From contig NC_021219.1 of the NCBI RefSeq assembly GCF_000392435.1, forward strand, positions 180,001-212,000: 32,000 nt of DNA, given 5' to 3'. The notes under the pieces are model-generated. The model ran no database searches, had not been told where the DNA came from, and saw only the letters and a list, made by a program, of their open reading frames with translations. Source of the DNA: Candidatus Saccharimonas aalborgensis (GTDB lineage Bacteria; Patescibacteriota; Saccharimonadia; Saccharimonadales; Saccharimonadaceae). Shown here one piece after another: positions 355-26,127 of the stretch; position 1 is the stretch's first letter, and each line of letters begins with the position of its first letter. The translations under genes were made by a program, and so were the position numbers.

Positions 355-876
355 ATGTCACGACAACAAAAAAATGACCCTAGGTCAAAGGAATCCGAAA
401 AACAGCTTCAGGCTGATTATTTACGAGAGAGAATCTATAGTGGCATTACCCTTCTTGGCGTTAGCGCAGGCCTCCTCGCAAATACTGCATACATCTCTGC
501 CAGTTACGCGCTCACGACAATAGTATCCGCCGCACTTGGTATAGGACTGGCAAGCATTTTTGCAGAACTTGTGTCATATCGCGTTATTCACGACAGAGCT
601 ATTCCTCGACGTGAATTCTTGCATCACCTAAGAACACACCGAGCTTTTCTGGTCGCTGCAGCCCCATCACTTATATTTATTCCTGCTGCGGCCCTCAGCA
701 TCATGACACTGCGAACTGCGCTCGTAATAGACATCGTTCTCGGGGTATTTAGCTTATTTGTTATCCTCATCCGTTCAGCAGTCACGCCAAAGAATACGTT
801 GGCATCAATCACCGTATCGATTGGAATACAGGCGATTATCGCAGCTCTTGTGATTGGTCTAAAGATAGTAAAATAA
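355..876 (+). CDS. hypothetical multi-pass membrane protein
   Basis: ORF track 313..876. Position 313 is TTG; the first ATG is at 355 (MSRQQKND...). Several long hydrophobic segments. No family recognised. Confidence 0.55.
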   Translation: MSRQQKNDPRSKESEKQLQADYLRERIYSGITLLGVSAGLLANTAYISASYALTTIVSAALGIGLASIFAELVSYRVIHDRAIPRREFLHHLRTHRAFLVAAAPSLIFIPAAALSIMTLRTALVIDIVLGVFSLFVILIRSAVTPKNTLASITVSIGIQAIIAALVIGLKIVK

Positions 877-2527: not shown

Positions 2528-3289
2528 CTATTTAACTTCTTTGGCCATAAAATCTTTGACACTCTGCACTGTGTCCATAAATTGACTGGGGAAAATAATC
2601 GTTGAGTTCTTTTCAACCGCAATCTCAGTCAAGACCTGCAAATTTCGAAGCTGTAATGCAATCGGGTGTGCAGAGATGATATCAGCCGCTTCACCTAACT
2701 TTTGGGCACTCATTTGCTCACCCTCGGCAGCGATGATCTTTGCCCGGCGCTCGCGCTCTGCCTCGGCCTGTTTGGCCATGGCACGTTTCATATCCTGAGG
2801 TAATTCGATATTTTGGACTTTGACACTGTCGATGTTGATGCCCCATTTTTCGGTTTCGCCGTCGACGATATCTTTGATCTGCTGGCTCACCTCATCTCGT
2901 TTACCGAGCAACGAATCGAGTTCAACATTACCAGTGACGTCGCGAAGTGCAGCCTGCGCAAACTGGCTTGTCGCATAAATATAATTTGCCACCTCTAGAA
3001 CAGCTTTATCGGCATTGACGACGTTGAAATAAACAACTGCATCGACATTGATGGTGACATTGTCTTTTGTGATAACTTCTTGCTTAGGAATATCGATGGT
3101 ATTAGTGCGAATATCGACTTTTATCATTCGCTGGAACACTGGTACTACAATGCGCAGTCCTGGCTCACGTATACCGCTAAACTTACCGAGAGTAAGTACA
3201 ACCCCTCGCTCATACTGATCGATAATCTTTATGCCACTTGCAATAATTGCCCCGACAAACAAAATGATTGTGATTACTGCACCTTCCAC
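2528..3289 (-). CDS. SPFH/band-7 (stomatin/prohibitin-like) membrane protein
   Basis: N-terminal TM followed by an SPFH core (GVVLTLGKFSGIREPGLRIVVPVFQ, DAVVYF) and a charged AEAERERRAKIIAAEGE region. I moved the start to GTG 3289 because GAGGAGG lies 5 nt upstream; the track start is 3337. Confidence 0.85.
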   Translation of the reverse strand: MEGAVITIILFVGAIIASGIKIIDQYERGVVLTLGKFSGIREPGLRIVVPVFQRMIKVDIRTNTIDIPKQEVITKDNVTINVDAVVYFNVVNADKAVLEVANYIYATSQFAQAALRDVTGNVELDSLLGKRDEVSQQIKDIVDGETEKWGINIDSVKVQNIELPQDMKRAMAKQAEAERERRAKIIAAEGEQMSAQKLGEAADIISAHPIALQLRNLQVLTEIAVEKNSTIIFPSQFMDTVQSVKDFMAKEVK

Positions 3290-3362
3290 TGTATCCTCCT
3301 CGACATTACATAGATACCAGTAGTATAGGATGTTCAAAAAATATTAGCAACGTCTGCCCTAC

Positions 3363-3391
3363 TTGTCGCGAGAACTAGGCCGTGATAGCAT
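3363..3391 (+). promoter_or_regulatory. promoter for tRNA-Gly(UCC): -35 TTGTCG, 17-nt spacer, extended -10 TGaTAGCAT
   Basis: TTGTCG at 3363..3368, TG at 3383..3384, TAGCAT at 3386..3391. The predicted TSS is about 4 nt before the tRNA 5' end. Confidence 0.4.
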
Positions 3392-3401
3392 GGACTGACA
3401 T

Positions 3402-3476
3402 GCGGGTGTAGTTTACCGTCAAAACGCTGGCCTTCCAGGCGAGAAACTCCTGGTTCAACTCCGGACACCCGCACCA
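3402..3476 (+). tRNA. tRNA-Gly (anticodon TCC), non-canonical D loop and stems, CCA encoded
   Basis: Hand fold, 75 nt: perfect acceptor GCGGGTG/CACCCGC; D arm GTTT-ACCGTCA-AAAC (no GG); anticodon arm CTGGC-CTTCCAG-GCGAG (central G/G mismatch); T arm CCTGG-TTCAACT-CCGGA (C/A at 49:65, U:G at 51:63); A73, CCA. Confidence 0.7.
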
Positions 3477-3562
3477 CAATCACAGTACATCCCTCGACGA
3501 GCTTCGCAGATGCGTGGCTCGTTTTCAAACGAGCGACTCTGGGGGTATAATGATAGAGGAAG

Positions 3563-4840
3563 ATGAAATTGATACATACAGCAAAAAAAGCCCTCTACAT
3601 TTCGGTAGCGAAGTATTTTCGTTACTGGTCAAACAAGAGCCTGCGGCGCTGGAATCCGCGAGTTATTGTCGTAACGGGGTCGGTTGGCAAGACAACCATG
3701 CTCAATCTCATCGAAACGCAGCTCGGACCGGCGGCTCACTATTCACACAATGCCAATAGTGCCTTTGGGATTGCCTTCGATATCGTGGGGATGCGTGGTA
3801 TTACCAGCAGCAAGCTGAAATGGCTGTATCTGTTCATCGCCGTCCCCCTCCGATCACTTTTTTTTACCAGACATGAAAAATATTATGTTGCCGAGATTGA
3901 CGGAGAACGCCCCCGCGAAGCCTCACTGCTTGCCGAATGGCTACGTCCCGAAGTAACTGTCTGGGTGAGCCTGGGCAGAAGCCACGCGGTGTTTTACGAT
4001 GCAGTGGTCGCAAGCGGTCGCTATGGGTCAGTCGATGAAGCTATCGCCGATGAATTCGCTTCACTTGCCCGAAACACCTCAAAGCTCGTAATCGTAGATG
4101 GCGGCAACCCGGCCATGACCACACAGATCAAAGATATTAGCGGCAAGATAGTTGCCATAACTGACGCAGCATTGCACAAATACCACGTCTCGCCTACCAG
4201 TGCATCATTTGTAATGAGTAGTGGCACATTTTCTTTTTCAGATCCAATGCCAAAAGAGACGTACGTCCAATTGGCGATGCTTGAGCAGCTCATGAACTAT
4301 CTCGCTTTGCCGATTACCCACGATGTATCGTCATTTTCGTCACCACCAGGCAGAAGTCGTCATTTTGCAGGCATCAAAGACACACACCTGATAGACAGCA
4401 GCTACAACGCACACCTCATCAGCATGCGTTCAATGATTGCGATGATGCAGGCTATGCCCGCGACGCACAAGTGGGCGGTCATCGGCGATATGGTGGAGCA
4501 AGGCAAGAGCGAGTCCGAAGAACACCGATTGCTTGGCGAGCTCCTCTCAACCACAGATTTCGAGCAAATTATTCTGGTGGGGCGACGAGTTTCTCTACAT
4601 ACTCACCCCGCTATCAGTTCATCCAACCCGCAAAGACACGTAGAATCATTTGCAAACGCACGCGATGCACTGCAATATATCGTCGATCATTTGCAGGGAA
4701 ATGAAGTCCTGCTCTTTAAGGGTAGCCAGTACCTCGAATGGATAGTCGAGAAGTTACTTCTCAACCCACAGGATGTAAGTAAATTAGCTCGCCAGGATAT
4801 TGCATCAGTTAAGCGCCGAGCATCTTGGGGGTTATCATGA
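3563..4840 (+). CDS. Mur ligase family protein, MurF-like, lacking the N-terminal UDP-binding domain
   Basis: P-loop VVTGSVGKTT at residues 36-45. DSSYNAH and GDMVEQGKSESEEH match the MurF-type motifs DDSYNAN and GDMLELG. 425 aa. Confidence 0.8.
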   Translation: MKLIHTAKKALYISVAKYFRYWSNKSLRRWNPRVIVVTGSVGKTTMLNLIETQLGPAAHYSHNANSAFGIAFDIVGMRGITSSKLKWLYLFIAVPLRSLFFTRHEKYYVAEIDGERPREASLLAEWLRPEVTVWVSLGRSHAVFYDAVVASGRYGSVDEAIADEFASLARNTSKLVIVDGGNPAMTTQIKDISGKIVAITDAALHKYHVSPTSASFVMSSGTFSFSDPMPKETYVQLAMLEQLMNYLALPITHDVSSFSSPPGRSRHFAGIKDTHLIDSSYNAHLISMRSMIAMMQAMPATHKWAVIGDMVEQGKSESEEHRLLGELLSTTDFEQIILVGRRVSLHTHPAISSSNPQRHVESFANARDALQYIVDHLQGNEVLLFKGSQYLEWIVEKLLLNPQDVSKLARQDIASVKRRASWGLS

Positions 4841-5532
4841 CAGCGCCTCTCGTCATCATCCACGGCTGGACCTACACAATTAAGCCATGGGACAAAACTG
4901 TTGCCATTCTCAAGGAGATGGGAGTGGAAGTACATCAACTCCGTGTGCCAGGACTGACACAGCCGTCTGACGCCGTGTGGACAATCGATGCGTACGTCGC
5001 CTGGCTCGATCAGGAACTACAAGCAATCCCCAATCCAATCGTCCTAGGGCATTCAAATGGTGGTCGTATTGCCATGCATTATCTAGCACAACACCCCAAT
5101 CGTTTCAAAAAGCTTATTTTGCTGAATAGTGCCGGCGTCGCTATCTCGTCAACGAGCCAGTCGCTGAAAAAAACTGCAGTGAAAGCATCAGCAAAGATAC
5201 TCAAACCGCTCAAATATATCCCTGGTGTTCGACGTGTAGTGTACCGCGCGCTAGGAAGCGACTACGGCAGAGCACCAAAAAACATGCAGGCCACACTCAA
5301 CAATATGCTAGCAGCCGATAAAGACTTCTCTCCGCGTATGATCGCTACCCCAACGATCATGCTGTGGGGGGAGTCGGATAACGTTACGTCGCTCGCAATT
5401 GGCAAAAAAATTGCCGATGAACTCCCCACGGCAACGCTCCATACCTTTCCGGGCTGGGGACATGCGCCGTACCTCACTCACCCAGAACAAGTGGCTGACG
5501 CAATTATGGCTGCCATGCAGGAGAGCGCGTGA
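4837..5532 (+). CDS. alpha/beta hydrolase
   Basis: Nucleophile elbow GHSNG, later WGESD and GWGHAPY. ATG 4837 overlaps the upstream stop (ATGA); the track start is 4825. Confidence 0.8.
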   Translation: MTAPLVIIHGWTYTIKPWDKTVAILKEMGVEVHQLRVPGLTQPSDAVWTIDAYVAWLDQELQAIPNPIVLGHSNGGRIAMHYLAQHPNRFKKLILLNSAGVAISSTSQSLKKTAVKASAKILKPLKYIPGVRRVVYRALGSDYGRAPKNMQATLNNMLAADKDFSPRMIATPTIMLWGESDNVTSLAIGKKIADELPTATLHTFPGWGHAPYLTHPEQVADAIMAAMQESA

Positions 5533-6695
5533 TTTTTCAGTCAATCGGCTCACAGTTTCGGGCCCCAGATATGTGGCGGCATCTGACTGCTCATGCTTCG
5601 CGTGATTCGTCTACGAAACTCACCCACACACTTGAGGCAACATTTGGCGGAAAGGCCTTTTTGTACCAAAATGGCAGAAGTGCGCTCGCGGCAGCCTTAA
5701 CCCAAATCGCGTTAGATCATCCAGGCGCATCGGTCGCGGTGAACGGCTATAGCTGCTTCGTCGTACAAGAAGCGGTGCATGCGGCTGGTTTGACACCAGT
5801 ATTTCTTGATATCGATCCAAACGCTCTCCATTTTTCGGGTGATACCCTAGCGAAAGCGCTCACAGAAAACACCGATATCAAAGCAGTGGTCGTTCAAAAT
5901 ACCTTAGGCATTCCGTGTGATATAGAGACGATTGAGCGAATCACTACAAAACGAAATATTTGTCTTATCGAGGACCTGGCTCATTCTGCTGGCTTACGCT
6001 ATGGCGACGGTCGTGCGGCAGGATCTGTTGGGGCCTTTGTCATCCTATCATTTGGCCGCGATAAACTACTCGATACGGTGAGTGGCGGTGCACTCATTGT
6101 GCGTCAATCAACAGATACAAGCAAATTGCCTCAGCATGAGCTACTTGCACCGCTGGGAACTCGCCTGAGAGATCGTTTGTATCCATTTTTTACCTGGATA
6201 GCACGCATGTTGTATCCGATAAAAGTTGGCGGCGTGTTACTACGGGGGCTCCTGTGGACAAAGCTCATTTCACGCTCGGCGAGCGGTAGTATCAACCCGT
6301 CCTACACGATGCCTGCTTGGCAAGCCGAATGTGCGCTCTATCGGCTGAAGGAGCTAGATCATGATATTGGTCGGCGAAAGGCGCTCCAGGAAATCTACCA
6401 AGAAAGACTACCCTCACTCATCGTAGCCGATACACCCGTGCGTGTCTCGATCATGGTAAAAGATCGTGCTGCGGTGCTGCGCGCCCTCCGTGCCCACCAC
6501 TATTATCTTGATGATATTTGGTATGATAGTCCCATCGGCCCGCGCCGGCTTTATCCCTCTGTAGCCTTTCCTGAATCACGCTGTCCTCACGCTGTCTATG
6601 CAGCAGAACACATCATCAATCTCCCGACTCATGTGTCTGTCGACAAAACAACTGCTCGACATATTGCTCAGATCATCGCCGAGGAAGAAGCATGA
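5529..6695 (+). CDS. DegT/DnrJ/EryC1/StrS-type PLP-dependent aminotransferase
   Basis: NGRSAL, LIEDLAHSAG, SFGRDK (candidate PLP lysine), GGALIV. GTG 5529 overlaps the upstream stop (GTGA). Confidence 0.75.
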   Translation: MIFQSIGSQFRAPDMWRHLTAHASRDSSTKLTHTLEATFGGKAFLYQNGRSALAAALTQIALDHPGASVAVNGYSCFVVQEAVHAAGLTPVFLDIDPNALHFSGDTLAKALTENTDIKAVVVQNTLGIPCDIETIERITTKRNICLIEDLAHSAGLRYGDGRAAGSVGAFVILSFGRDKLLDTVSGGALIVRQSTDTSKLPQHELLAPLGTRLRDRLYPFFTWIARMLYPIKVGGVLLRGLLWTKLISRSASGSINPSYTMPAWQAECALYRLKELDHDIGRRKALQEIYQERLPSLIVADTPVRVSIMVKDRAAVLRALRAHHYYLDDIWYDSPIGPRRLYPSVAFPESRCPHAVYAAEHIINLPTHVSVDKTTARHIAQIIAEEEA

Positions 6696-7693
6696 ACCAA
6701 TTCAGGATGTGTAGCGATAAGGCCACGTGGGATCGCTATCTCGCAGATTATCCTGAAGCAAATTTTTTGCAGTCATGGCAGTGGGCAGAAACATATGCTC
6801 GGCGTGGCAATACCATACTGAGGCATACGCTCACCGATGATGGTGTAGTAAAAGCAGTAGTCGCTGGCGTCACACATACTGCCCGGCGAGGAAAATATTT
6901 AGAAATCGCTGGCGGACCTTTGGTTGACTGGTCTGACACTCGCCTCGTTACTCTCCTCATGAATCATATTGCGACATTTGCCAGAGAGCAGCGGTGCGTA
7001 TTTGTGCGTATCCGACCACAAGCACAGACCGTTTCATTGACACAGTTTGGTCTCCGTCCTGCACGTATGCATCTTCATGCAGAACATACCAGCATACTAG
7101 ACATTGGCCGTGACACCGAGGTATTGCTCGCCGCCATGCGCCAACAAACGCGCTACGAGATACGACGCGCACCAAAACGCGGCATTAGCATCTCCTCAAA
7201 TAGAGCGTCGGTTGAAATTGATGAGTTCATTGAAATGCAGTACCAAACTGCCCATCGCCAGGGATTCACTCCCTCTTCGCCCGATTTCCTCCGTGAAGTT
7301 TGCCGCCAATTTGGTGACGATGCGCGTCTCTACCGCGCACAAAAAAATGGTCAGACGCTCAATCTTGCGCTTATCTTACATTTCGGTAAGGAGACGGATT
7401 ATTATGAAGCGGCCTCGATACCAGCAGCACGCAACGAACCCGGCGCTTACGCTATTTTGTGGCAGGTTATCAATGACGCCAAGCAGCGACAGATGTCGCG
7501 TGTGAACCTGTGGGGAATTGCACCGTCCAATTCCGGGCCAGCTCATCGCTACGCTCGTGTGACGACATTCAAACGTGGTTTTGGTGGCGACGACACTACC
7601 TATACACATGCTCATGATCTCGTCCTCAGGCCCATTGCCTACACAAAAAACTGGCTTGTTGAATCCATACGAAAAAAAAGGAGAAACGTATAA
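6692..7693 (+). CDS. FemAB-family (FemX-like) aminoacyl-tRNA-dependent peptidyltransferase, copy 1
   Basis: EANFLQSWQWAE, RRGKYLEIAGGP, VFVRIRPQ, NLWGI, FKRGFGG. 333 aa with no coiled-coil insert. ATG overlaps the upstream stop (ATGA). Confidence 0.8.
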   Translation: MNQFRMCSDKATWDRYLADYPEANFLQSWQWAETYARRGNTILRHTLTDDGVVKAVVAGVTHTARRGKYLEIAGGPLVDWSDTRLVTLLMNHIATFAREQRCVFVRIRPQAQTVSLTQFGLRPARMHLHAEHTSILDIGRDTEVLLAAMRQQTRYEIRRAPKRGISISSNRASVEIDEFIEMQYQTAHRQGFTPSSPDFLREVCRQFGDDARLYRAQKNGQTLNLALILHFGKETDYYEAASIPAARNEPGAYAILWQVINDAKQRQMSRVNLWGIAPSNSGPAHRYARVTTFKRGFGGDDTTYTHAHDLVLRPIAYTKNWLVESIRKKRRNV

Positions 7694-8716
7694 ATGGCAT
7701 ACGAAGTGAAAACGGTTGAATCAAAAGAGCAATGGGATTCGTTCGTCACATCACACCCCGAGGCCAACTTCCTGCAATCATGGCAGTGGGGAGAGTTTCA
7801 TACATCGCGTAGCAAAACGATCGTCCGTCGCGGTATCTACGATGACAACAAGCTTGTCGCCGTCTACACCGGACATGTCGAGCCAGCGCGTCGTGGGATT
7901 CATTTGGAAATTGCAGGTGGCCCTATCGTAGACTGGCAAAATCAGTCTCTCGTAGAGAAAGTATTTGCAGACATTGCAGATATGGCAAAAAGACTTGGCT
8001 GTGTCTATGTGCGAATCCGGCCTCAACTCCTCGATAGTCCAACCGCTCGGCATCAATTTGGCAATCTTGGTCTCAAAAAAGCGCCAATGTATCTGAGTGT
8101 GGAGCTAGCAGGTGTGATCGACCTCACAAAAACCGACCAGGAAATACTGCAGGGGATGCGCCAGCGTCTCCGACGGGCCCTCCGAAAAGCAGAAAAGAAT
8201 ACTATCACCGTCGAAAAAAGTACTGATCCTGCGGCGATAAAAGAGTTCTATAAGATTCAGCTTCAAACTGCAGGACGACATCAATTTGTAGCATTCTCGG
8301 AAGACTTCCTCACCAAGCAATTTGCAGCATTTGCAAAAGATAATTCGGCAGTCCTCTATACCGCAAAGTACCAGGGAGAGATACTTGCTCAAAACTTTAT
8401 GATATTTTATGGCAATGAAGCCTCCTACCATTATGGGGTTAGCACCGAACTCGGCACGACACTCTCTGGTGCACCACTGCTACATCTCCAGGCAATGCGC
8501 GATGCTCGCGAGCGAGGTATAACTCGTTATAACTTCTGGGGTATTGTTGACGAGACCGATACTAACCATCGATTTTACGGTGTGAGTGTCTTTAAACGCG
8601 GCTTTGGAGTTGAAGAGCTACGATACCTACCAGCCCATGATCTGATCATCAACCGCACCGCTTACCTAAAGACAAAGCTTATCGAGACGACCCGTCGAAA
8701 GATCCGACGTGTCTAA
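7694..8716 (+). CDS. FemAB-family (FemX-like) aminoacyl-tRNA-dependent peptidyltransferase, copy 2
   Basis: EANFLQSWQWGE, RRGIHLEIAGGP, VYVRIRPQ, NFWGI, FKRGFG. 340 aa. ATG immediately follows the upstream TAA. Confidence 0.8.
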   Translation: MAYEVKTVESKEQWDSFVTSHPEANFLQSWQWGEFHTSRSKTIVRRGIYDDNKLVAVYTGHVEPARRGIHLEIAGGPIVDWQNQSLVEKVFADIADMAKRLGCVYVRIRPQLLDSPTARHQFGNLGLKKAPMYLSVELAGVIDLTKTDQEILQGMRQRLRRALRKAEKNTITVEKSTDPAAIKEFYKIQLQTAGRHQFVAFSEDFLTKQFAAFAKDNSAVLYTAKYQGEILAQNFMIFYGNEASYHYGVSTELGTTLSGAPLLHLQAMRDARERGITRYNFWGIVDETDTNHRFYGVSVFKRGFGVEELRYLPAHDLIINRTAYLKTKLIETTRRKIRRV

Positions 8717-8753: not shown

Positions 8754-9890
8754 GTGAAACATATCTATGAGATACCGGTGGCACCCTGGCTCGCTACATT
8801 GAGTACAAAAATTGGTATGCCGATCACGCTCGCAACTATTCCAGAGGATGTTGTCGAGCAGATAGTCTCTTATCACATGGATACGGTATGGCTGATGGGG
8901 GTATGGCAACGCAGTGAAGTAGCGGCCGAGATTAGTCGAGCTGATGAGCAACTCTGGCACGAGGTTGTCGGAATCCTCCCCGACGCCACCAAAGACGATA
9001 TCATAGGATCGGCCTATGCAGTAAAAGCCTATCGTGTTGACCAACGATTCGGCGGCGAAGATGGTTTGGCGATTTTTCGAGAGCAGTTGCGTGCCCGCGG
9101 TGTCAAGCTTCTGCTCGATTTTGTCCCCAATCACACGTCATTTGATGCACCATGGCTAAAGACAGACCCCGAGTATTACATTGCCGCTCGCCGAGATGAT
9201 GCCAACGAACACCCTGAGCGCTACTACCAAACGGAGCAAGTCTGTATTGCCAAAGGTGCCGACCCAAACCTGCCACCATGGCCTGACGTCGCTCAGGTAA
9301 ACGCCTTTTCGTCAGCATACCGCCTTGAGAGCAGTCTGACTCTGCAATATATCGCCAGTCTCTGTGATGGTGTACGCTGTGATATGGCGATGCTTCTCCT
9401 GAACGACGTCGTCGAACATACTTGGGCCGAAAAAGCGGGTCAACGACCCACTGAAGAATACTGGTCAGAGGTTATTGGCTCGGTAAAGGCGCTTTATCCA
9501 TCATTTATTTTTATTGCTGAGTGCTACTGGGACACGGAACGCACTCTCCTAGAGCTGGGCTTTGATTACTGTTATGACAAACGTCTTTACGATGCTATGG
9601 TTGCTCGCGATGAGAGCGCTATCGATAATCGTCTCAGTGTACTGTCGGATGTCGCACCCCATCTGGTGTACTTCCTCGAGAATCATGATGAAGCGCGAGC
9701 AGCGACCGTCTTTAGTCCAGATGAGCAGACGCGGTATGCCCGAAAAATTATTACATCGCCAGGAGTTTGCTTATGGTATGATGGCCAATTTGTCGGCAAT
9801 CAGGCGAAGCTTCCTACCCATATTGGACGTGCACCGATCGAAAAGCCAAACGACGAAATTTGCGATATTTACAGAGAGTTACTCGTCTAA
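8754..9890 (+). CDS. GH13 alpha-amylase-family glycoside hydrolase (catalytic domain only)
   Basis: GH13 regions I-IV: DFVPNH, GVRCDMA, IAECYW, FLENHDE. GTG start. Confidence 0.8.
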   Translation: MKHIYEIPVAPWLATLSTKIGMPITLATIPEDVVEQIVSYHMDTVWLMGVWQRSEVAAEISRADEQLWHEVVGILPDATKDDIIGSAYAVKAYRVDQRFGGEDGLAIFREQLRARGVKLLLDFVPNHTSFDAPWLKTDPEYYIAARRDDANEHPERYYQTEQVCIAKGADPNLPPWPDVAQVNAFSSAYRLESSLTLQYIASLCDGVRCDMAMLLLNDVVEHTWAEKAGQRPTEEYWSEVIGSVKALYPSFIFIAECYWDTERTLLELGFDYCYDKRLYDAMVARDESAIDNRLSVLSDVAPHLVYFLENHDEARAATVFSPDEQTRYARKIITSPGVCLWYDGQFVGNQAKLPTHIGRAPIEKPNDEICDIYRELLV

Positions 9891-11537
9891 ATCTTTTTTC
9901 AGCGGGTGCTCACTACACTCGACAATGACACCCTCGAACGGGCGCAACATGATTGTGCCGTCTTCGGCAATTTCCGGATAATCAACCGGATGCGTACAAC
10001 ACAGAATACGTCCTTTATGTGGAAGTTTCACCGTATTATCAAGTCGTCCGAAATTGAGAGCAACGTAGATATGCTGATCACCCAACCAGCGAGCATACGA
10101 GAATACATCGGCCTCAAGCTCGCCAATCGCCTCATAGGTACCAGTCCGCAAAATCTCATAACGGCTTCTCATGCGCAGGAGTCGACGATATAGTGACAAA
10201 AAAGAGTCGGCTTCGTGTTGTTGTGTTTCAACATTGTGATGTCGTACAGACTCCCCTAATGGTAACCAGGGTTTTGCCTTACTAAATCCTGCATATTGAC
10301 CCGTCTGCCACTGCATTGGTGTCCGCTCTGGATCACGCGTCGAATCGATATCTCCTGATGTAAACGCTCGTAGGTCTTGGATATCCTCCTGTTTAACTGG
10401 GGTATTGGGCATACCCAATTCGTCACCATAGTACACCGTCGGCAAACCGGGTAGTGACAGAAGGAGGAGTGCCATCAAACGGGCCTGCTCATCACCGCCC
10501 ATTCTTGAGACTAACCGTGATTGGTCGTGATTACCAAAGCAGTACACGGGTGTATGCTCATCGGGATCAAGCATTCCCTGAAACTCAGTGATAAATGTGC
10601 GGAACGCATCGGCATAAAAGTCGGTCCACACGCCCTCGAAGTTAAATGGCATCGCTACTTTAGGATTGACACCATAAAAGCCAAGGTATTGCTCTTTTGT
10701 GCTGTAATTGGCGTCAGGATAGTCTTCGAATATCATGATACGATTATCGTATTCGGCAACAACATCAGTAAGCTCACGAAGATAGGGGAAAAGATTTTTC
10801 CAGAAACGACTATATTTATGAATGTAGTGGTTGTACTCACCCTCTGTCCCGTCCATCGCCTTTCTGACAATTTCTGTCAAAGGATCGTTTCGGAACTTCG
10901 GGTCTTTACTTAGCCAGCGTACCGCGTCCGCGCGAATACCATCGATACCGAGATCGAGCCAAAAGCGTACCACGCGTTTCATTTCATCGCGTACCATAGG
11001 GTTGTCCCAATTAAGATCGGGTTGCGCCGCCAGAAAGGTGTGGAGATAGTATTGGTTACGACCATCATCATACTCCCAGGCAGAGCCCCCAAAAATACTC
11101 AGCCAATTGTTTGGTGGACCACCTCCAGGAGCGGGATCTCGCCATGTGTAATACTCTGCGTAAGGTCCCTTTCTTGATTTACGTGATTCCTTAAACCATT
11201 CATGCTGGTCACTGGTGTGATTTGGCACAAAATCGATCATGACGTTTATATTTCGTGCATGCGCTTTCTCGATGAGCTCCTTAAAATCATCTAGCGTCCC
11301 AAATAGTGGATCAATATCACAGTAGTCGCTCACGTCATAGCCCATATCTGCCATCGGTGAAGGAAATATCGGTGAAAACCATATTGCATCAATATCCAGC
11401 GAATCTTTTTGGCCTTTTATGTAGTCCAGACGGTCGATAACACCCCGAATGTCACCTACACCGTCGTTATTCGCATCCATGAAACTACGTGGGTATATCT
11501 GATATATTGCGTTCACATCTCGCCAAGAAAGACTCAT
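9879..11537 (-). CDS. GH13 alpha-glucosidase (oligo-1,6-glucosidase / trehalose-6-phosphate hydrolase subfamily)
   Basis: YQIYPRSF, NNDGVGDIRG, DFVPNHTSDQHEWF, GIRADAV, FGNHDQSR. 552 aa. Confidence 0.9.
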   Translation of the reverse strand: MSLSWRDVNAIYQIYPRSFMDANNDGVGDIRGVIDRLDYIKGQKDSLDIDAIWFSPIFPSPMADMGYDVSDYCDIDPLFGTLDDFKELIEKAHARNINVMIDFVPNHTSDQHEWFKESRKSRKGPYAEYYTWRDPAPGGGPPNNWLSIFGGSAWEYDDGRNQYYLHTFLAAQPDLNWDNPMVRDEMKRVVRFWLDLGIDGIRADAVRWLSKDPKFRNDPLTEIVRKAMDGTEGEYNHYIHKYSRFWKNLFPYLRELTDVVAEYDNRIMIFEDYPDANYSTKEQYLGFYGVNPKVAMPFNFEGVWTDFYADAFRTFITEFQGMLDPDEHTPVYCFGNHDQSRLVSRMGGDEQARLMALLLLSLPGLPTVYYGDELGMPNTPVKQEDIQDLRAFTSGDIDSTRDPERTPMQWQTGQYAGFSKAKPWLPLGESVRHHNVETQQHEADSFLSLYRRLLRMRSRYEILRTGTYEAIGELEADVFSYARWLGDQHIYVALNFGRLDNTVKLPHKGRILCCTHPVDYPEIAEDGTIMLRPFEGVIVECSEHPLKKDLDE

Positions 11538-13144
11538 TGCTTTTCTCCTTCATCATCCAACGCTGCATAGACGCCGTTTGTCCAGCCAAAGCCATCCTGA
11601 ACCTCATACTCTCCGCCACCACCCAGTTCTCCGGGATGAACGACGTTGTATTTTTCAATCATTTTTTGATACTTTGCATACACTAAGTCGTTTGCGAGTA
11701 GCCAACGGCGTCGAATTTCATTGGCAAGTTCATGATACCCATATTCCCTCAGGCCGTGGATTGCCACCCACTGAAGAGGCGCCCAGCCATTTGGTGCATC
11801 CCACTGCTGTCCGCTTGTAACAAGGGTTGTTACAAGTCCACCGGGCTTCAGAAAGTCGGTTTCAATTCGCTTCGCTAAAAAGGCTGCTTGCTCCTTCGTA
11901 GCAATTTTTGTATAGAGAGGAAACAATCCTGCCAAGGTTACTCGTCCGCTTGAATTATATGTCGACGTGTCATAATCACAAAAAAACCGTTCCGATTCAT
12001 CCCAGCAATATCGCCGAATAGTCTCTGCTCGCCGCTCAGCAGCTTTTCGAAACGACGTAGCCAGGAGGGGCTGCTTGATAAGTGTGTAGGCTTCTGCGAT
12101 GGTGGATTCAAGCGTATAAAGCATACTGTTGAGGTCAATTGCCGCCATGTTTGTGGTCTGAATTGATTGAATTTCATCCGCCACGCGAAACCAGCGTGAG
12201 CTAAAATCCCAACCACTCTCAGCGCCTGCCCGTAAGTTAAGATAGAGCTGTTCTTTAGCGTTCTCGTCACTGATATTCTGAGCTGTTTGTCGGTCCTCAC
12301 GGCTCATCTCGGGACGTGGTGTGTGCCTATCATCAAAGTATCGCCCAAGCAGCGCACCGTTTGGCATCCGTACTAATCGATTGTGGAGCGTTGGGGTGCT
12401 CTGCTTCATCGCCTCCCGTCGTCCGTGCGTCCAAAAACGGTATTCGATAAGCAAATATGGAAGGAACTCAGCGTATGTCCGCGTGCGCCCCCTACGCTTC
12501 GCTAGCAATATTATCATTTGAGCAAAAAACGGCGGCTGGGAGCGACTAAGGAAATAGCTGCGGCTAGCATTGGGGATCCTCCCATACTTTCGTAGCATAT
12601 AGGCATGGTTTCGTACCATACCAAGAAGTATGTCCCACTTATCGTCAGCAGCAAGACCGAGCATGATAAAGTAACTATCCCAATAAAACTGTTCGTCAAA
12701 CCTTCCCCCCGGCACGACATACGTATAGGGGAGTGCGAGTAACGAACCGTGTTGTTTTCTATTGGTACGTTCTAGGTAGGGCCATAGTTGCCGTATATGT
12801 TCACGCGCAGTCGCCGCAGTAGCAGGCAAACTCCCTGACTTCTTGTTTAGGATAGGCTGTGCCTCAAAGTTAGTATCTACGAAGTCCTTGAGGGAAAAAC
12901 CAGCCTGTTGCCGCTGCACTTCATATTGTTTTTTTATTTTTTTGCCCTTTGGAACCATATCAACAAATCGTTTTCCATCGCCCAAAACTTGAGTAACTTG
13001 AACATCTTTAAGAAGATCACCATAGCTATCCTCGGGACTCTGAGGCGTTCGGCCCAGGGTACCCGCCACTGCAACATATGTCGATTTCACTTTTTCGACA
13101 TGACGGCGAGATGTTTGTTTTTTTCGCAAAATGCGCCTAAACAT
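11534..13144 (-). CDS. trehalase (GH37)
   Basis: Both trehalase signatures are present: PGGRFDEQFYWDSYF and QWDAPNGWAPLQW. Its stop overlaps the downstream start (ATGA). Confidence 0.9.
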   Translation of the reverse strand: MFRRILRKKQTSRRHVEKVKSTYVAVAGTLGRTPQSPEDSYGDLLKDVQVTQVLGDGKRFVDMVPKGKKIKKQYEVQRQQAGFSLKDFVDTNFEAQPILNKKSGSLPATAATAREHIRQLWPYLERTNRKQHGSLLALPYTYVVPGGRFDEQFYWDSYFIMLGLAADDKWDILLGMVRNHAYMLRKYGRIPNASRSYFLSRSQPPFFAQMIILLAKRRGRTRTYAEFLPYLLIEYRFWTHGRREAMKQSTPTLHNRLVRMPNGALLGRYFDDRHTPRPEMSREDRQTAQNISDENAKEQLYLNLRAGAESGWDFSSRWFRVADEIQSIQTTNMAAIDLNSMLYTLESTIAEAYTLIKQPLLATSFRKAAERRAETIRRYCWDESERFFCDYDTSTYNSSGRVTLAGLFPLYTKIATKEQAAFLAKRIETDFLKPGGLVTTLVTSGQQWDAPNGWAPLQWVAIHGLREYGYHELANEIRRRWLLANDLVYAKYQKMIEKYNVVHPGELGGGGEYEVQDGFGWTNGVYAALDDEGEKQ

Positions 13145-21397: not shown

Positions 21398-22201
21398 ATG
21401 CGCGAACGACAACATGAAATTATCGAGAAGCTCGGTGTCAAACCAATAATAGATCCACGCGAAGAAGTAGAACAACGTACCCACCTCCTTGCCAGCTATT
21501 TGCGCGAGCATCACAGAGCCGGATACACACTAGGCATATCAGGTGGGCAGGATTCACTTCTCGTGGGGCTACTCGCGCAGCGGGCGGTCATGCTCAATCG
21601 AACCCTTGGCTATGACTCGACATTTTCGGCAATACTACTCCCCTATGGCACACAGGCCGATAGAGCTGATGCGCTGCTAGCAATTGATACGATCAAGCCT
21701 GATCATACTATCGATTTTAATATTGCCTCCGTTGTGGACGCGTTTGTATCCTCATATGATGCCGCAAGTGGGGAATCATTGACCGATTTTCACAAAGGAA
21801 ACGTCAAAGCGCGAACTCGGATGATGGCACAATATGCAGTTGCCGGCATGCATGATCAAGTCGTACTCAGTACAGACCATGCCGCTGAAGCCTTGGTTGG
21901 ATTCTTTACAAAATTTGGTGATGGTGCCGCCGATGTCGCTCCTATCGCCACGCTCAATAAACGTCAAGGTAGACAAGTGCTACGCTTCCTTGATGTACCC
22001 GAGGTATTTATTACAAAAGTGCCGACTGCTGACCTGCTCGATGCTACTCCTTCTCAGCCAGACGAAGTTGAACTAGGAATGACCTACGAAGATTTCGATG
22101 ATTATCTCGAAGGTTTTGAAGTTCCCGAAGAGAAAGCTATTGCTATTGAGCGCAGGCATGCTGCCATCTTGCACAAGCTCGAGCCAATTGTGAGGTTTTA
22201 G
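21398..22201 (+). CDS. nadE: NH3-dependent NAD+ synthetase
   Basis: PP-loop GISGGQDS; 267 aa, the typical length for single-domain NadE. Confidence 0.9.
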   Translation: MRERQHEIIEKLGVKPIIDPREEVEQRTHLLASYLREHHRAGYTLGISGGQDSLLVGLLAQRAVMLNRTLGYDSTFSAILLPYGTQADRADALLAIDTIKPDHTIDFNIASVVDAFVSSYDAASGESLTDFHKGNVKARTRMMAQYAVAGMHDQVVLSTDHAAEALVGFFTKFGDGAADVAPIATLNKRQGRQVLRFLDVPEVFITKVPTADLLDATPSQPDEVELGMTYEDFDDYLEGFEVPEEKAIAIERRHAAILHKLEPIVRF

Positions 22202-22250
22202 TCAATTATGTCGGATTGTTGAGTGCCTTTTCAAACGATCTATTGTATTG

Positions 22251-22256
22251 TAGACT
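22251..22256 (+). promoter_or_regulatory. -10-like TAGACT, 6 nt upstream of the nrtR ATG (leaderless configuration)
   Basis: Read directly: TTGTAGACTtagtgtATG. The same TAGACT hexamer serves as the -10 of the pnuC promoter. Confidence 0.4.
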
Positions 22257-22276
22257 TAGTGTATGAAGTACAGTAG
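22256..22276. promoter_or_regulatory. candidate NrtR operator covering the nrtR TSS and start codon (autoregulation)
   Basis: TTAGTGTA-tgaag-TACAgTAg. The ATG at 22263 lies inside the left arm. Confidence 0.5.
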
Positions 22277-22940
22277 CCCCTATGTCCCACCTACACTGAC
22301 CGTTGACGCTGTTATATTTCAACTTCACGGTGATAAACTAGAGGTTCTCCTCACCCAGCGTGAAAGCGATCCTTTCAAGGGGGAGTGGGCACTACCGGGT
22401 GGATACAATGCTGTCGGCAGCACTACCATTGAGGCACTTACTGAAATTGTTTTGCGCAAGACGGGCGTTGATCTCGACAACGATCTCGCTTATATCGAAC
22501 AGCTCTATACGTTTGACACGGTCGCTCGCGATCCGAGAGGACATGCCGTATCTGTTACCTATATGGGCTGTAGTCGAGCTATCACCCTCGGTACCGGCAG
22601 CCAGCATGCTGAGTTTTTTCCCGTCGATAGGCTTCCCAATCTCGCCTATGACCATGCGAGCATCATCACCTATGCCCAGGAACGTCTCGCAGCAAAGCTC
22701 ACCTATACCAATGCCGTGTCGGGGTTACTCGACAAGAAGTTTACGCTTTCCCAGCTGCAAACAGCATATGAGGCGGTGATGGGACGCTTGCTCGATAAAC
22801 GAAACTTCCGCAAAAAGTTTCTCACGCTCAATCTCATTCATGAGACGCCAGATACCTGGCGAGATGGTGCGCATCGCCCAGCAAAGTTATATGCATTCAA
22901 TTCGTCAAGCCTTGAGGTTCTTTCTCGAAGTTTCGACTAG
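22263..22940 (+). CDS. nrtR: NrtR-type transcriptional regulator (degenerate Nudix domain plus C-terminal winged helix)
   Basis: Nudix fold with a degenerate box (PGGYNAVGSTTIEALTEIVLRKTGV, which lacks the REx2EE signature). C-terminal FTLSQLQTAYEAVMGRLLDKRNFRKKF is typical of NrtR. Confidence 0.8.
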   Translation: MKYSSPYVPPTLTVDAVIFQLHGDKLEVLLTQRESDPFKGEWALPGGYNAVGSTTIEALTEIVLRKTGVDLDNDLAYIEQLYTFDTVARDPRGHAVSVTYMGCSRAITLGTGSQHAEFFPVDRLPNLAYDHASIITYAQERLAAKLTYTNAVSGLLDKKFTLSQLQTAYEAVMGRLLDKRNFRKKFLTLNLIHETPDTWRDGAHRPAKLYAFNSSSLEVLSRSFD

Positions 22941-23041
22941 CTAACACATAACATACACACCATCTCAATTCCCTATGCAAAACAGTGTGGCCAGAAAACA
23001 CACAATAGGGTAAATGGGTTCATATTCTGACAAATTGTTGA

Positions 23042-23062
23042 ATAGCGTTGACAATACACTAT
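23042..23062. promoter_or_regulatory. candidate NrtR operator (weak) overlapping the pnuC -35
   Basis: aTAGcGTt-gacaa-TACACTAt. Confidence 0.35.
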
Positions 23063-23076
23063 TCGCTTGGTAGACT
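23048..23076 (+). promoter_or_regulatory. pnuC promoter: -35 TTGACA, 17-nt spacer, -10 TAGACT
   Basis: TTGACA at 23048..23053 and TAGACT at 23071..23076. Confidence 0.55.
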
Positions 23077-23084
23077 GAAATTAG

Positions 23085-23105
23085 TTAGTGTAATATGTAC
23101 AATTA
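23085..23105. promoter_or_regulatory. candidate NrtR operator just downstream of the pnuC TSS
   Basis: TTAGTGTA-atatg-TACAaTtA. Confidence 0.5.
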
Positions 23106-23125
23106 GTACGGGAAGGAACACTCCA

Positions 23126-23845
23126 ATGAAAAAACTATTAACCACTAGTCGGGTCAGCAATACGCGAGATATCGCGGAAAGTGTATTTATAGGAGTTATC
23201 CTGACTACGCTTTCCTATGTCGTAGGTCTAAACGCCGGATGGGTTTCAAGTCTTAATCTGCTCGAGATTTTTGCCGTTTTTACCTCCTACTCAAGCACTT
23301 ATCTCTGCGTAAAAGAGCGACGCGCAAATTACCCGATCGGCGCTATCAGTACGGCCGCGTATATGCTACTGTTTCTGCAAAATGGGCTACTTGCCAGCGC
23401 CATTCTCAATGCTTATCTCACCCCCACGCTCATCTATGGGTGGATCAGGTGGCGCAAAGACAAGCAAACACGACCTGTCACCCACGTGCAACTTCAGTGG
23501 ATACCTGTCTATCTAGCCGTAGCTGGTGTCGGCTACGCTGGAGCAGCACTCATCAGTCAACAATTTGGCGGCACTATGGCATGGACGGATTCGATGATTT
23601 TGGCTGCTACCATTCTGGCTCAATTTTTGCTTGACAACAAAAAGCTAGAAAACTGGGTTGTATGGGCCGTTGTCAATGTGTTTGCTATCTATACCTACGC
23701 CACCACTGGACTACCACTTGTCGCCTTCCAATATGTGTTTTTCCTCCTCAACACAGTGTATGGATTTATGATGTGGCAACGGAGTAAAAAGATAACCGAC
23801 ACTCTACCGACTCACGCTGATACCGGCGTTCCCATGGAGGCATAG
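23126..23845 (+). CDS. pnuC: nicotinamide riboside transporter PnuC
   Basis: IYGWIRWRK and AQFLLDNKKLENWVVWAVVNV motifs; about 7 TM. ATG 23126 has a GGAAGGA SD; the track TTG start at 23048 lies inside the promoter. Confidence 0.85.
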   Translation: MKKLLTTSRVSNTRDIAESVFIGVILTTLSYVVGLNAGWVSSLNLLEIFAVFTSYSSTYLCVKERRANYPIGAISTAAYMLLFLQNGLLASAILNAYLTPTLIYGWIRWRKDKQTRPVTHVQLQWIPVYLAVAGVGYAGAALISQQFGGTMAWTDSMILAATILAQFLLDNKKLENWVVWAVVNVFAIYTYATTGLPLVAFQYVFFLLNTVYGFMMWQRSKKITDTLPTHADTGVPMEA

Positions 23846-23846
23846 C

Positions 23847-24386
23847 ATGAAACCATTTACCGTTACCATCATTGGCGCAGAGTCCACCGGCAAAACGAGT
23901 CTTTCTCGCCAGCTTGCCGATACAATGGATGGTGACTGGGTTCCTGAATTCGCCCGCCCCTACCTTGAAGTTACCGACGGCATCACAAATATCAGCTCGA
24001 TGCTCGCAATATGGCAAGGGCAACTAGCACTGCAACACGTTGCCACACAGTCGCCGCGACCGTACGTTATCCTCGACACCGATCTCTATGCAACTGTTGG
24101 TTACTGGAAGCTCCCGCAGAGCAAATCGTATCTTGGCGCATGTCCTGAAAAACTTATAGAAGACGCCGCATTATACCAATCAAACCTTTATCTCGTCACG
24201 CAAAGTAACATTCCCTTTGAGCCAGATGCGCTACGCTATGGCGGCGACAAACGAGAAAGCACAGATGAGTATTGGATACGACTCTGCAAAAGCTATCAAC
24301 TACCCTACCATGTTATATCGGCAGCTAACCGTGATGAGCGCTTAGCTGAAGCAATTGGCATCATAAACGAAAGGAGTGCACAATGA
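23847..24386 (+). CDS. stand-alone NadR-type ribosylnicotinamide-kinase-like P-loop protein (intact Walker A)
   Basis: IIGAESTGKTSL Walker A, ILDTD, and FEPDALRYGGDKRES (LID-like). It can be aligned to the C-terminal domain of NadR. Confidence 0.75.
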   Translation: MKPFTVTIIGAESTGKTSLSRQLADTMDGDWVPEFARPYLEVTDGITNISSMLAIWQGQLALQHVATQSPRPYVILDTDLYATVGYWKLPQSKSYLGACPEKLIEDAALYQSNLYLVTQSNIPFEPDALRYGGDKRESTDEYWIRLCKSYQLPYHVISAANRDERLAEAIGIINERSAQ

Positions 24387-25354
24387 AAGGTCTTGTTATC
24401 GGAAAGTTTTACCCACCTCACCTTGGGCACAACTACCTTATCGATACCGCCCTCAAGAACTGTGAGTCTGTCGACGTGCTCGTCGTTGATAACCCGGCAT
24501 ATCACATTGCTGCCGAGAAGCGACGCGAGTGGCTTCAGGCTCGCCACCCTACTGCCCACGTTACCATTATCCCTGATATCAATAATGACGATGACTCGGT
24601 GGCGTGGGCCGCACATACGATGCAGTTTCTCGGCTACAAACCTGATGTTGTCTATAGCTCCGAAGACTATGGTGACCCATGGGCGCGGTATATGGGTGCG
24701 CAAAGTATCGTTGTCGACAAAGCACGTACTGCCGTACCAATTTCAGGCACAAAAGTTCGTGAGGATATGCTTGCTTCCTGGCAGTATCTTTCGGACGAGA
24801 CAAAGGCCGGACTAGCACTTCGCATCGTCATCGTCGGTGCCGAGTCAACTGGTACAACGACTCTGTCGAGAGACCTAGCCGCCGCGCTCAACGCACCGTG
24901 GGCACCCGAGATTGGTAGATACTACACCGAATCGATTTTGACGACCGACAAAGCATGGTGCGACGATGACTTTTATCGAATCGGTAAATTACAACAAAAC
25001 TACGAGGCGGAAATGGCAAAACGCAGTGACGGCGTTGTCGTGTGTGATACCAATGCGGTCGCGACAGAACTCTGGCAACGCCGCTATATGGGGCGTACTA
25101 CGAAGGCCATGCACGCTATTGCCGCCCAGGATAAAGCTGATCTTTATATTATTACCGGCGATGAAATCCCGTTTGTACAAGATGGTATCCGCGACGGTGA
25201 GCACATCAGACATCGCATGCACCAATGGTTTATCGGCCATATCAAAAAAACAGGAATCCCTTACATCATTGTTTCTGGAACGCGAAGGCAACGTCTCCGC
25301 AAAGCCCATCAAGTCTCGAAAAAAATGATACGAGAGAAAAAAGTTATTTTTTAA
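24383..25354 (+). CDS. nadR: NadR-like NMN adenylyltransferase fused to an RNK-like domain with a degenerate Walker A; no HTH
   Basis: GKFYPPHLGH (HxGH) and ISGTKVR (ISSTxxR-like) mark the NMNAT domain. The second domain has VGAESTGTTTL, where the P-loop Lys is Thr. ATG overlaps the upstream stop (ATGA). Confidence 0.8.
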   Translation: MKGLVIGKFYPPHLGHNYLIDTALKNCESVDVLVVDNPAYHIAAEKRREWLQARHPTAHVTIIPDINNDDDSVAWAAHTMQFLGYKPDVVYSSEDYGDPWARYMGAQSIVVDKARTAVPISGTKVREDMLASWQYLSDETKAGLALRIVIVGAESTGTTTLSRDLAAALNAPWAPEIGRYYTESILTTDKAWCDDDFYRIGKLQQNYEAEMAKRSDGVVVCDTNAVATELWQRRYMGRTTKAMHAIAAQDKADLYIITGDEIPFVQDGIRDGEHIRHRMHQWFIGHIKKTGIPYIIVSGTRRQRLRKAHQVSKKMIREKKVIF

Positions 25355-25361
25355 TAAAAAA

Positions 25362-25382
25362 TTAGTGTTCAAATCACACTAA
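25362..25382. promoter_or_regulatory. candidate NrtR operator upstream of pncA
   Basis: TTAGTGTt-caaat-cACACTAA. The perfect 8-bp arms are ATTAGTGT/ACACTAAT, 18 nt upstream of ATG 25400. Confidence 0.65.
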
Positions 25383-25399
25383 TATATAAAGGAGTTGTT

Positions 25400-26125
25400 A
25401 TGAAAACAAGTAAAGAAACGAGCAGGATATATGGCGAAGTAGTCGCCATCAATGTTGACTTACAAAATGACTTTTGTCCGGGCGGAAGCCTCGCTGTTGA
25501 GGACGGAGATCGAGTGATCGAGCCGATAAATAGGCTCAGTGCTTGGGTGCGAGAACACGGCGGTATGGTCGTCGACACCGCCGATGAACATCCGAAAGTA
25601 ACAAATCATTTCGCTGAGTATGGGGGGACATGGCCGGTCCACTGTGTCGTAGATACCCCAGGTGCCGCCCTACACCGCAATCTGACCATCGAACCATCAG
25701 ATGCCCTAGCCCGAAAAGGTGTAGCGCCTAACGACGCGGGGTACTCAGGCTATGACGCTGTCTTAAAACCACGTGCTACCGTGCCCAACGATATCGTCAG
25801 TGATCTCCCAGAAGAGGAACAGACGGTCGGCAGATTCCTGGAAAGAGTGGTGCGAGTTAACCGTAGTCTTGGTTCAAGGACACTTATCCTCCTCACAGGA
25901 CTGGCTGGTGACTACTGCGTATCGGCAACGGGACGACCCATCCTTGAGAAGCTCCCATCAGAATGGACAGACCTCATCTGGGTGAGTGATGCGATTCGGA
26001 GCGTCAATCAAGAAAATGGTGAGATTGAAAAACAAGCCTCGATTGAAGCAGGTGCCTTGGTTATGACAACGGAAGAAATCTTAGCCGGAGGCATTGTCAT
26101 TGATCGTGGGCGCCTGGAGAACTAG
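25400..26125 (+). CDS. pncA: nicotinamidase (isochorismatase family)
   Basis: VDLQNDFCPGGSLAV and LTGLAGDYCVSAT (catalytic Cys). AAAGGAG SD. Confidence 0.85.
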   Translation: MKTSKETSRIYGEVVAINVDLQNDFCPGGSLAVEDGDRVIEPINRLSAWVREHGGMVVDTADEHPKVTNHFAEYGGTWPVHCVVDTPGAALHRNLTIEPSDALARKGVAPNDAGYSGYDAVLKPRATVPNDIVSDLPEEEQTVGRFLERVVRVNRSLGSRTLILLTGLAGDYCVSATGRPILEKLPSEWTDLIWVSDAIRSVNQENGEIEKQASIEAGALVMTTEEILAGGIVIDRGRLEN

Positions 26126-26127
26126 CC

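Follow-up and report, generated by a model that had tools for sequence, protein, structure and literature searches.

Structure of a deviant tRNA-Gly(UCC) gene upstream of a Mur-ligase/Fem operon

We analysed a 32,000-nt stretch of the Candidatus Saccharimonas aalborgensis genome (contig NC_021219.1, positions 180,001 to 212,000; this whole stretch is called the window below) and focused on a tRNA-Gly(UCC) gene of unusual structure and on the operon that follows it, which encodes a Mur-ligase-like protein and two FemAB-family aminoacyl-tRNA transferases. ARAGORN called four tRNAs in the window, among them the tRNA-Gly(UCC), which is 75 nt long, has an encoded CCA and lies at 3402-3476 on the plus strand (as do all features below unless a strand is given). 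With Rfam family RF00005 it reached 48.5 bits (gathering score 29); the other three tRNAs of the window all scored higher. Both results agree with the initial annotation of the window, in which this gene had been proposed. It is referred to here as the odd tRNA.

Compared with a canonical elongator, the tRNA has a cloverleaf above the RF00005 threshold, on which ARAGORN agrees, but it deviates in three features: U19 stands opposite C56, C32 opposite G38, and a bulged pyrimidine follows position 51. As had been noted initially, its D loop (ACCGUCA) has no GG, whereas the other three tRNAs of the window contain one. G18 itself (3418) is retained and G19 alone is lost, with U19 at 3419 and C20 at 3420. 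C32 (3432) and G38 (3438) can form a Watson-Crick pair, so that a 6-bp anticodon stem with a 5-nt loop is possible. The initial annotation had missed this pairing and the retention of G18, as well as the operon's own promoter at 3524-3551. Infernal showed a U inserted in the T stem (bulged, 3451) and a non-canonical 29:41 pair, formed by G29 (3429) and G41 (3441). The T loop TTCAACT spans 3454-3460. The glycine identity elements G1-C72, C2-G71, G3-C70, C35 and C36 are all kept, and A73 (3473) is the same base as in the clade's Gly-CCC and Gly-GCC tRNAs. An antisense pseudo-open reading frame overlaps the odd tRNA and is called as a 39-amino-acid gene on locus L205.

The odd tRNA belongs to a conserved class

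Relatives of the Mur-ligase-like protein were found at 425 places (one genome per species), and the best 80 of these 425, nearly all from Saccharibacteria, were kept. The loci were anchored on the Mur ligase and fetched with 10-kb flanks around the match. Four distinct sequences of the odd tRNA, from three lineages, were aligned. The first lineage comprises the window species, L001 and L241, and L001 is the best genomic match to the window, with 94.9% nucleotide identity across 14.4 kb. The second consists of L268, with a Mur ligase 67% identical to that of the window, and the third of L205, L206 and L207, with a Mur ligase 62% identical. The D loop A-N-N-G18-U19-C20-A21 and the anticodon loop CUUCCAG, with C32 and G38, were invariant in 4/4 variants. 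The bulged pyrimidine in the T stem, the T loop UUCAACU, A73 and the encoded CCA were likewise common to all four. The D-loop change first noticed in the window is therefore also present in the relatives, with U19 in every variant.

Structure was judged by covariation. Minimum free energy folds of the single sequence, which lengthened the anticodon stem and did not recover the T arm of the cloverleaf, were set aside. In the Infernal register, 98.8% of pair cells were paired, against 26-54% when partners were slid, and seven stem pairs were altered on both sides across the four variants: acceptor pair 5:68 (G5-C68 to A-U), D-stem pair 11:24 (U11-A24 to C-G), all but one of the five anticodon-stem pairs, and T-stem pair 51:63 (C51-G63 to U-A). 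The T stem in this register follows a 4-nt variable loop and consists of U49-A65, C50-G64, Y51-R63, the bulged pyrimidine, G52-C62 and G53-C61. It is 100% paired with one compensatory pair across the four variants, whereas the register of the initial annotation gives 70%. The C/A mismatch at 49:65 and the U:G pair at 51:63 reported there were therefore a register error for a bulged T stem. Because of the 98.8% paired cells and the seven compensated pairs, the odd tRNA appears to be functional and the pseudogene reading is ruled out. Judged by this covariation, it represents a conserved, distinct class of functional structured RNA rather than decay or a random deviant.

The sole unpaired cell of the alignment was G29/G41 of the window. 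The initial annotation had noted this G/G in the anticodon stem, and it is real but species-specific: the G29/G41 version was identical in eight independent assemblies, whereas L001 has G29-C41. The mismatch is fixed in the window species, and a sequencing error as its source is ruled out by the agreement of the eight assemblies. Separately, the Logan contig L276 of wastewater run SRR770574 stops inside the T arm of the odd tRNA (L276, 1-16), while the ENA assembly (L271) reads through; a repeat, strain variation or a gap in coverage may lie behind this break.

The features are rare elsewhere and the sequence evolves fast

As a viral background, we collected tRNA-Gly(UCC) sequences with A73 and CCA from IMG/VR, 117 among the matches listed. 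All 117 had GG in the D loop and none had G38. A metagenome scan with a pattern that left the D loop, the anticodon stem, position 38 and the T stem free gave 52 hits. Among these, 51 were canonical tRNAs of 74 nt, all with GG, with A38 or C38, no bulge and the T loop UUCGAU(U/C); their D loop was AGUGGUA except in three (AAUGGUA or AGUGGCA). The remaining hit was the odd tRNA itself (L241, identical to L001). The canonical tRNAs (on L209-L260, for example L243) share the first 14 nt of the odd tRNA and A73-CCA and come mostly from marine and lake metagenomes. Their contigs are probably archaeal rather than from the candidate phyla radiation (CPR), because other tRNAs on L243 have no encoded CCA.

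Among 30 distinct Saccharibacteria tRNAs on the fetched loci, C32/G38 was confined to the four odd variants, and the only other tRNA without GG was the Gly-GCC of L201. The initial annotation had considered that such features might occur in most tRNAs of this lineage; judging from these 30 sequences, they are not a general property. The G19-C56 elbow pair of tRNAs is universal. The L201 tRNA-Gly(GCC) (474-550, minus strand) has the D loop AGUUGUUUA with U19 and the T loop UUAGAGU with A56, so that U19-A56 compensates for G19-C56; the EF-Tu binding predicted from its T stem remains strong (-11.0 kcal/mol). Glycine tRNA elbows seem to be unusually labile in the Saccharimonas-like clade.

Compared with the L205/L206 lineage, the window's odd tRNA was identical at 59/75 positions and its neighbour tRNA-Gly(CCC) at 72/75. 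Against L001, the odd tRNA differed at three positions, and tRNA-Phe and Gly-CCC at none. By these counts, the odd tRNA evolves about five times faster than its Gly-CCC neighbour, and the constraint on its sequence is relaxed.

Predicted binding to EF-Tu is weak

EF-Tu affinity was predicted with the additive T-stem table of Schrader and Uhlenbeck (PMC3239215), which uses pairs 49:65, 50:64 and 51:63 and leaves the bulge outside the model. The calculation, proposed in the initial annotation, gave -10.0 kcal/mol for the window's odd tRNA (UA/CG/CG) and -9.5 kcal/mol for those of L205 and L268 (UA/CG/UA), against a mean of -10.8 kcal/mol for bacterial Gly-UCC and -9.5 kcal/mol for the staphylococcal non-proteogenic tRNA (PMC3239215). 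The clade's Gly-GCC (G49-U65, A50-U64, G51-C63) was computed at -11.0 kcal/mol and its Gly-CCC, with three G-C pairs, at -10.5 kcal/mol. The model thus predicts that the T stem of the odd tRNA binds EF-Tu more weakly than those of the clade's other glycine tRNAs, and the bulge directly 3' of position 51 likely weakens binding further.

The tRNA and the operon are probably transcribed separately

A -35-like TTGTCG at 3363-3368, read from the sequence and below the threshold of the consensus scan, is followed after a 17-nt spacer by the extended -10-like element TGATAGCAT (3383-3391), the end of which lies 10 nt before the mature 5' end. The initial annotation had placed both elements correctly. 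Both hexamers are unchanged in L001, with four substitutions in the spacer, and the pattern TGnTAnnnT ends exactly 10 nt before G1 in 3/3 lineages (TGATAGCAT in the window, TGATAATGT in L268 and TGGTAGTGT in L205). We infer that the TGnTAnnnT element works as the promoter of the tRNA.

Between the end of the tRNA and the ATG of the Mur-ligase gene at 3563 lie 86 nt. They contain the hairpin GCTCGTTTTCAAACGAGC (3517-3534), which has no U tract, as described initially, and one stem base of which differs in L001. It is probably not a terminator, and a scan of 3200-3700 for terminator-like sites found none. At the same place, 3' of the odd tRNA, L205 and L268 have a different hairpin with a T run, a putative terminator. 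The operon has its own promoter, TTCAAA-16-TATAAT at 3524-3551, with 10/12 consensus matches, and the GTATAAT -10 upstream of the Mur-ligase gene is kept in every lineage, with or without the odd tRNA. Read-through into the operon, as suggested initially, is therefore possible in the window species but unnecessary, since the operon has its own -10 and the tRNAs of L205 and L268 appear to have their own terminator. From these signals, the odd tRNA would be a separate transcription unit.

The tRNA is fixed beside the operon and cleanly lost in sister lineages

In all three lineages that carry it, the odd tRNA precedes the Mur-ligase gene by 68-87 nt on the same strand. The synteny on which the initial annotation had built thus holds wherever the tRNA is found, but in three related lineages only. 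Within the Saccharimonas-like clade, tRNA-bearing and tRNA-less lineages are interleaved. A cassette of about 145 nt, comprising promoter, tRNA and terminator, is cleanly missing in L266, L204 and L201, and both sides of this indel (the start of the ddl-like gene and the -10 of the Mur-ligase gene) are conserved. The Mur ligase of the tRNA-less L266 is 89% identical to that of the tRNA-bearing L205. The simplest history suggested by this pattern is ancestral presence followed by at least two losses.

GGA accounts for 22.5% of glycine codons (14.4 per 1000 codons), and a GGA decoder is therefore indispensable. The clean losses suggest that the odd tRNA is dispensable and, taken together with the need for a GGA decoder, that it is probably not the sole tRNA-Gly(UCC) of its hosts.

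Genes of the downstream module

The first gene of the operon (3563-4840) encodes a MurF-related, Mur-ligase-like protein without the N-terminal domain. It matches Pfam Mur_ligase_C and, weakly, Mur_ligase_M; it scores 110 bits with TIGR01143 against a cut-off of 288, and its best match in the PDB is MurF (2.8e-8). Because the N-terminal domain is missing, its substrate may not be a peptide of uridine diphosphate-N-acetylmuramic acid (UDP-MurNAc). An alpha/beta hydrolase follows (4825-5532; Pfam Abhydrolase_1, 5.4e-19), which was present in 80/81 loci counting the window, and then a DegT/DnrJ/EryC1-type pyridoxal phosphate-dependent aminotransferase (5529-6695; Pfam, 2.5e-33), present in 41/81. 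The last two genes encode the FemAB-family aminoacyl-tRNA transferases, paralog 1 at 6692-7693 (Pfam FemAB, 1.4e-36) and paralog 2 at 7694-8716 (6.2e-39), with domain scores of 126.6 and 134.4 bits (cut-off 24). The operon proposed initially, with a Mur ligase and two Fem genes, is thus supported by Pfam. The Mur ligase, the hydrolase and the two Fem genes make up its core.

The relatives of the Fem paralogs in the PDB are FemX, FemA and FmhB. The best solved relative of paralog 2 is Staphylococcus aureus FmhB, a lipid II:glycine glycyltransferase (6snr, 1.7e-17), and that of paralog 1 is Weissella FemX (2e-10). With the NCBIfam FemX(Ala) equivalog, the paralogs reached 48-55 bits against a cut-off of 500. 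Judged by these scores, the similarities are too distant to assign an amino-acid specificity.

The module spans 3563-8716 in the window, 8143-14990 in L201 and 1480-8478 in L205. Its neighbours in close relatives are a short Ddl-like gene upstream (minus strand) and an M15 (VanY-like) peptidase gene downstream. The window species has no ddl-like gene, and the odd tRNA fills the gap between an SPFH gene and the Mur-ligase gene. Immediately behind the Fem genes, 8754-13144 encode an amylase-family protein, a second alpha-amylase-family protein (trehalose-synthase-like) and a trehalase, and in L201 and L205 the operon is followed by the same trio.

A possible glycine donor for the Fem-like transferases

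Our best explanation, which we hold tentatively, is that the odd tRNA is an accessory glycine tRNA that escapes EF-Tu and the ribosome and supplies the Fem-like transferases, as an independent analogue of the staphylococcal system. The tRNA would be expressed and chargeable with glycine, and the accessory class would be limited to the small Saccharimonas-like clade, in addition to a second, normal UCC tRNA for translation. Its derived features would lower the use by EF-Tu and the ribosome without harming glycylation. These would be the loss of the G19-C56 pair, the C32-G38 pair that closes the anticodon loop, the bulge beside the EF-Tu-contacting pairs, and the weak pairs 49:65, 50:64 and 51:63. 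Glycyl-tRNA would thereby stay available to the two FemAB-family transferases encoded directly downstream, which could add glycine from it to peptidoglycan or to an envelope precursor. In evolutionary terms, Saccharimonas-like CPR bacteria may have evolved a non-proteinogenic tRNA-Gly independently, from a canonical tRNA-Gly(UCC). The bulged T stem, the lost G19-C56 elbow pair and the closed 32-38 pair would be a new structural way of avoiding EF-Tu and the ribosome, and the tRNA would supply glycine to a phylum-wide Mur-ligase/Fem envelope module. We consider this possible but offer it with the same reserve.

Staphylococcal non-proteogenic (NP) tRNAs (NP1-NP3 in S. aureus, Ia and Ib in S. epidermidis) are glycine donors for FmhB, FemA and FemB. 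These tRNA-Gly(UCC) species have U or dihydrouridine at position 19, a UGY T loop, a 6-bp anticodon stem with a 5-nt loop, and the weak T-stem pairs A49-U65, U50-A64 and A51-U63; the determinants for FmhB sit in the D and T arms, and such tRNAs were so far known from S. aureus and S. epidermidis only (Rietmeyer et al., PMC7826273). The odd tRNA shares with them the UCC anticodon, glycine identity, U19, closable 32-38 positions, deviations in the D and T arms, weak predicted EF-Tu pairs (-9.5 kcal/mol in staphylococci and -9.5 to -10.0 kcal/mol here) and co-occurring FemAB-family transferases. Unlike them, it lies directly upstream of a Fem operon, and its T-stem bulge has not been described for the staphylococcal NP tRNAs. 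It stands outside their lineage, since its host is a CPR Saccharibacterium and its 5' half resembles a canonical GCGGGUGUAGUUUAGUGGUAAAAC-type tRNA-Gly(UCC). The likeness between the two groups is accordingly convergent.

Canonical tRNA-Gly(UCC), such as Escherichia coli glyT and the 74-nt metagenomic sequences, agrees with the odd tRNA in the cloverleaf, the GCGGGUG acceptor stem, the D stem, the anticodon and the 4-nt variable loop. The odd tRNA differs from it by G19 to U, U20 to C, A38 or C38 to G38, the T-stem bulge (75 against 74 nt), UUCAACU in place of UUCGAUU, weaker EF-Tu pairs and faster evolution. Other tRNAs with a second, normal gene copy have been flagged as outliers in EF-Tu affinity, and a T stem predicted to be weaker than the isoacceptor mean was proposed as the signature of extra-translational functions (Schrader and Uhlenbeck 2011, Table 4; PMC3239215). 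The odd tRNA shares such a T stem with these outliers; they rest on base-pair identity alone, whereas here the bulge and the changes in the elbow and the anticodon loop are added.

Several observations weigh against a role as Fem donor. The Fem operon was present in 80/80 Saccharibacteria loci (GTDB), but L001 alone had the odd tRNA within 10 kb of its Mur-ligase gene; the other 79 of the 80 species had the operon and no tRNA-Gly(UCC) nearby. Since the operon occurs without the tRNA in nearly all sampled Saccharibacteria, the Fem enzymes do not need it. As its own transcription unit, the tRNA may owe its adjacency, within one small clade, to inherited position. The best solved relative of paralog 1 is an alanyl transferase. 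The odd tRNA keeps G18 and U54-U55-C56, where staphylococcal NP tRNAs have UGY, and U19 also occurs in the Gly-GCC of L201, presumably a translational tRNA, so that unusual elbows are not exclusive to the odd class. A second, canonical tRNA-Gly(UCC) was not seen in the fetched Saccharibacteria loci, the metagenome scan did not recover a canonical one from Saccharibacteria, extension of the window on one side yielded a tRNA-Leu only, and nothing on the tRNA complement of Ca. S. aalborgensis was found in the literature and its supplements. Saccharibacteria tRNA sets are minimal (43 tRNAs in the closed RAAC3 genome; PMC3812714), and duplicates should therefore be unusual. The idea of a dedicated Fem donor, put forward in the initial annotation, thus gains from the distinct class, the glycine identity and the staphylococcal parallels, and loses from the narrow adjacency and the UUC T loop.

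The small tRNA sets also bear on a second explanation, which we consider somewhat unlikely: the odd tRNA may be the clade's ordinary, single-copy translational tRNA-Gly(UCC), idiosyncratic in structure and only incidentally adjacent to the operon, with the gene located elsewhere in tRNA-less relatives. GGA needs a UCC decoder, the tRNA sets are near-minimal, and the fetched loci contain no other UCC tRNA. The structure is well maintained, with a canonical T loop and G18, the gene has its own promoter and terminator, and the operon works without it in nearly all Saccharibacteria. The other two glycine isoacceptors are encoded a few kb away at most in this clade (CCC in the window, both GCC and CCC in L201), like a loose glycine tRNA cluster; the Gly-GCC of L201 has U19 as well, and the varying location of Gly-GCC among lineages implies that essential tRNAs move. 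A sole decoder, however, should match its neighbours in conservation, yet the odd tRNA evolves about five times faster than Gly-CCC and has a G/G mismatch fixed in its anticodon stem. C32/G38, U19/C56 and the T-stem bulge are conserved although they are expected to impair translation, and the precise excision of the cassette, next to a Mur ligase 89% identical, would need a prior duplication elsewhere. Should the tRNA nevertheless prove to be the only decoder of GGA, the rules of tRNA tuning would have an unusual test case in a translational tRNA that combines U19/C56 and C32-G38 with a bulged T stem.

Patchy presence with clean losses, accelerated evolution, and a stem mismatch fixed in one species would also be expected of a redundant accessory tRNA-Gly(UCC) with a role unrelated to Fem, such as a fine-tuner of translation whose decoding is altered, a regulatory or stress tRNA, a substrate of another enzyme that depends on aminoacyl-tRNA, or a duplicate in slow degeneration. 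Its independent transcription and the functioning of the operon without it in nearly all Saccharibacteria fit this explanation too, and T-arm sequence is known to change which codons tRNA-Gly(UCC) prefers to decode (PMC10853795). The seven compensatory pairs, and odd features that stay invariant across deep divergence, contradict pure decay. Moreover, no nearby gene besides the two Fem paralogs uses aminoacyl-tRNA, and the combination of features matches the one known class of cell-wall-dedicated tRNAs. We regard a role unrelated to Fem as unlikely.

That the tRNA is left over from a horizontally transferred mobile element or phage, or is the attachment site of one, is hardly credible and was rejected: although the tRNA with its promoter and terminator forms a discrete presence/absence cassette of about 145 nt and many phages carry tRNA-Gly(UCC) with A73 and CCA, IMG/VR yielded no member of the odd class (among the matches listed, the closest viral tRNA is identical at 56/75 positions), the cassette borders have no integrase or repeat, and vertical inheritance is indicated by an insertion point common to the three lineages and by sequence divergence that follows that of the host genes.

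If the odd tRNA does serve the Fem-like transferases, it would extend dedicated cell-wall tRNAs beyond staphylococci for the first time. The split of aminoacyl-tRNA pools between ribosome and cell wall would then be a recurrent evolutionary solution, found here in an ultra-small episymbiotic CPR bacterium, and the T-stem bulge would be a new natural anti-determinant for EF-Tu. The conserved Mur-ligase/Fem module of Saccharibacteria would make glycine branches. The cell envelopes of Saccharibacteria are central to host attachment.

Other features of the window

A second copy of the 3' 32 nt of tRNA-Phe (1395-1470) and of the roughly 40 nt that follow them lies 131-133 nt downstream (1439-1511 and 1570-1644). 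The duplication has identities of 98% and 90% and is also present in L001. It looks like an attachment-site scar left by integration or excision at tRNA-Phe, or a small tandem duplication.

A cluster for the salvage and regulation of nicotinamide adenine dinucleotide (NAD) spans 21398-28856. It encodes NadE, an NrtR-type Nudix regulator, a PnuC-type nicotinamide mononucleotide transporter, two AAA_28 proteins (NadR-kinase-like), an isochorismatase/PncA-like protein, NAPRTase and a Nudix-APH fusion, and is consistent with the lifestyle of a scavenging episymbiont.

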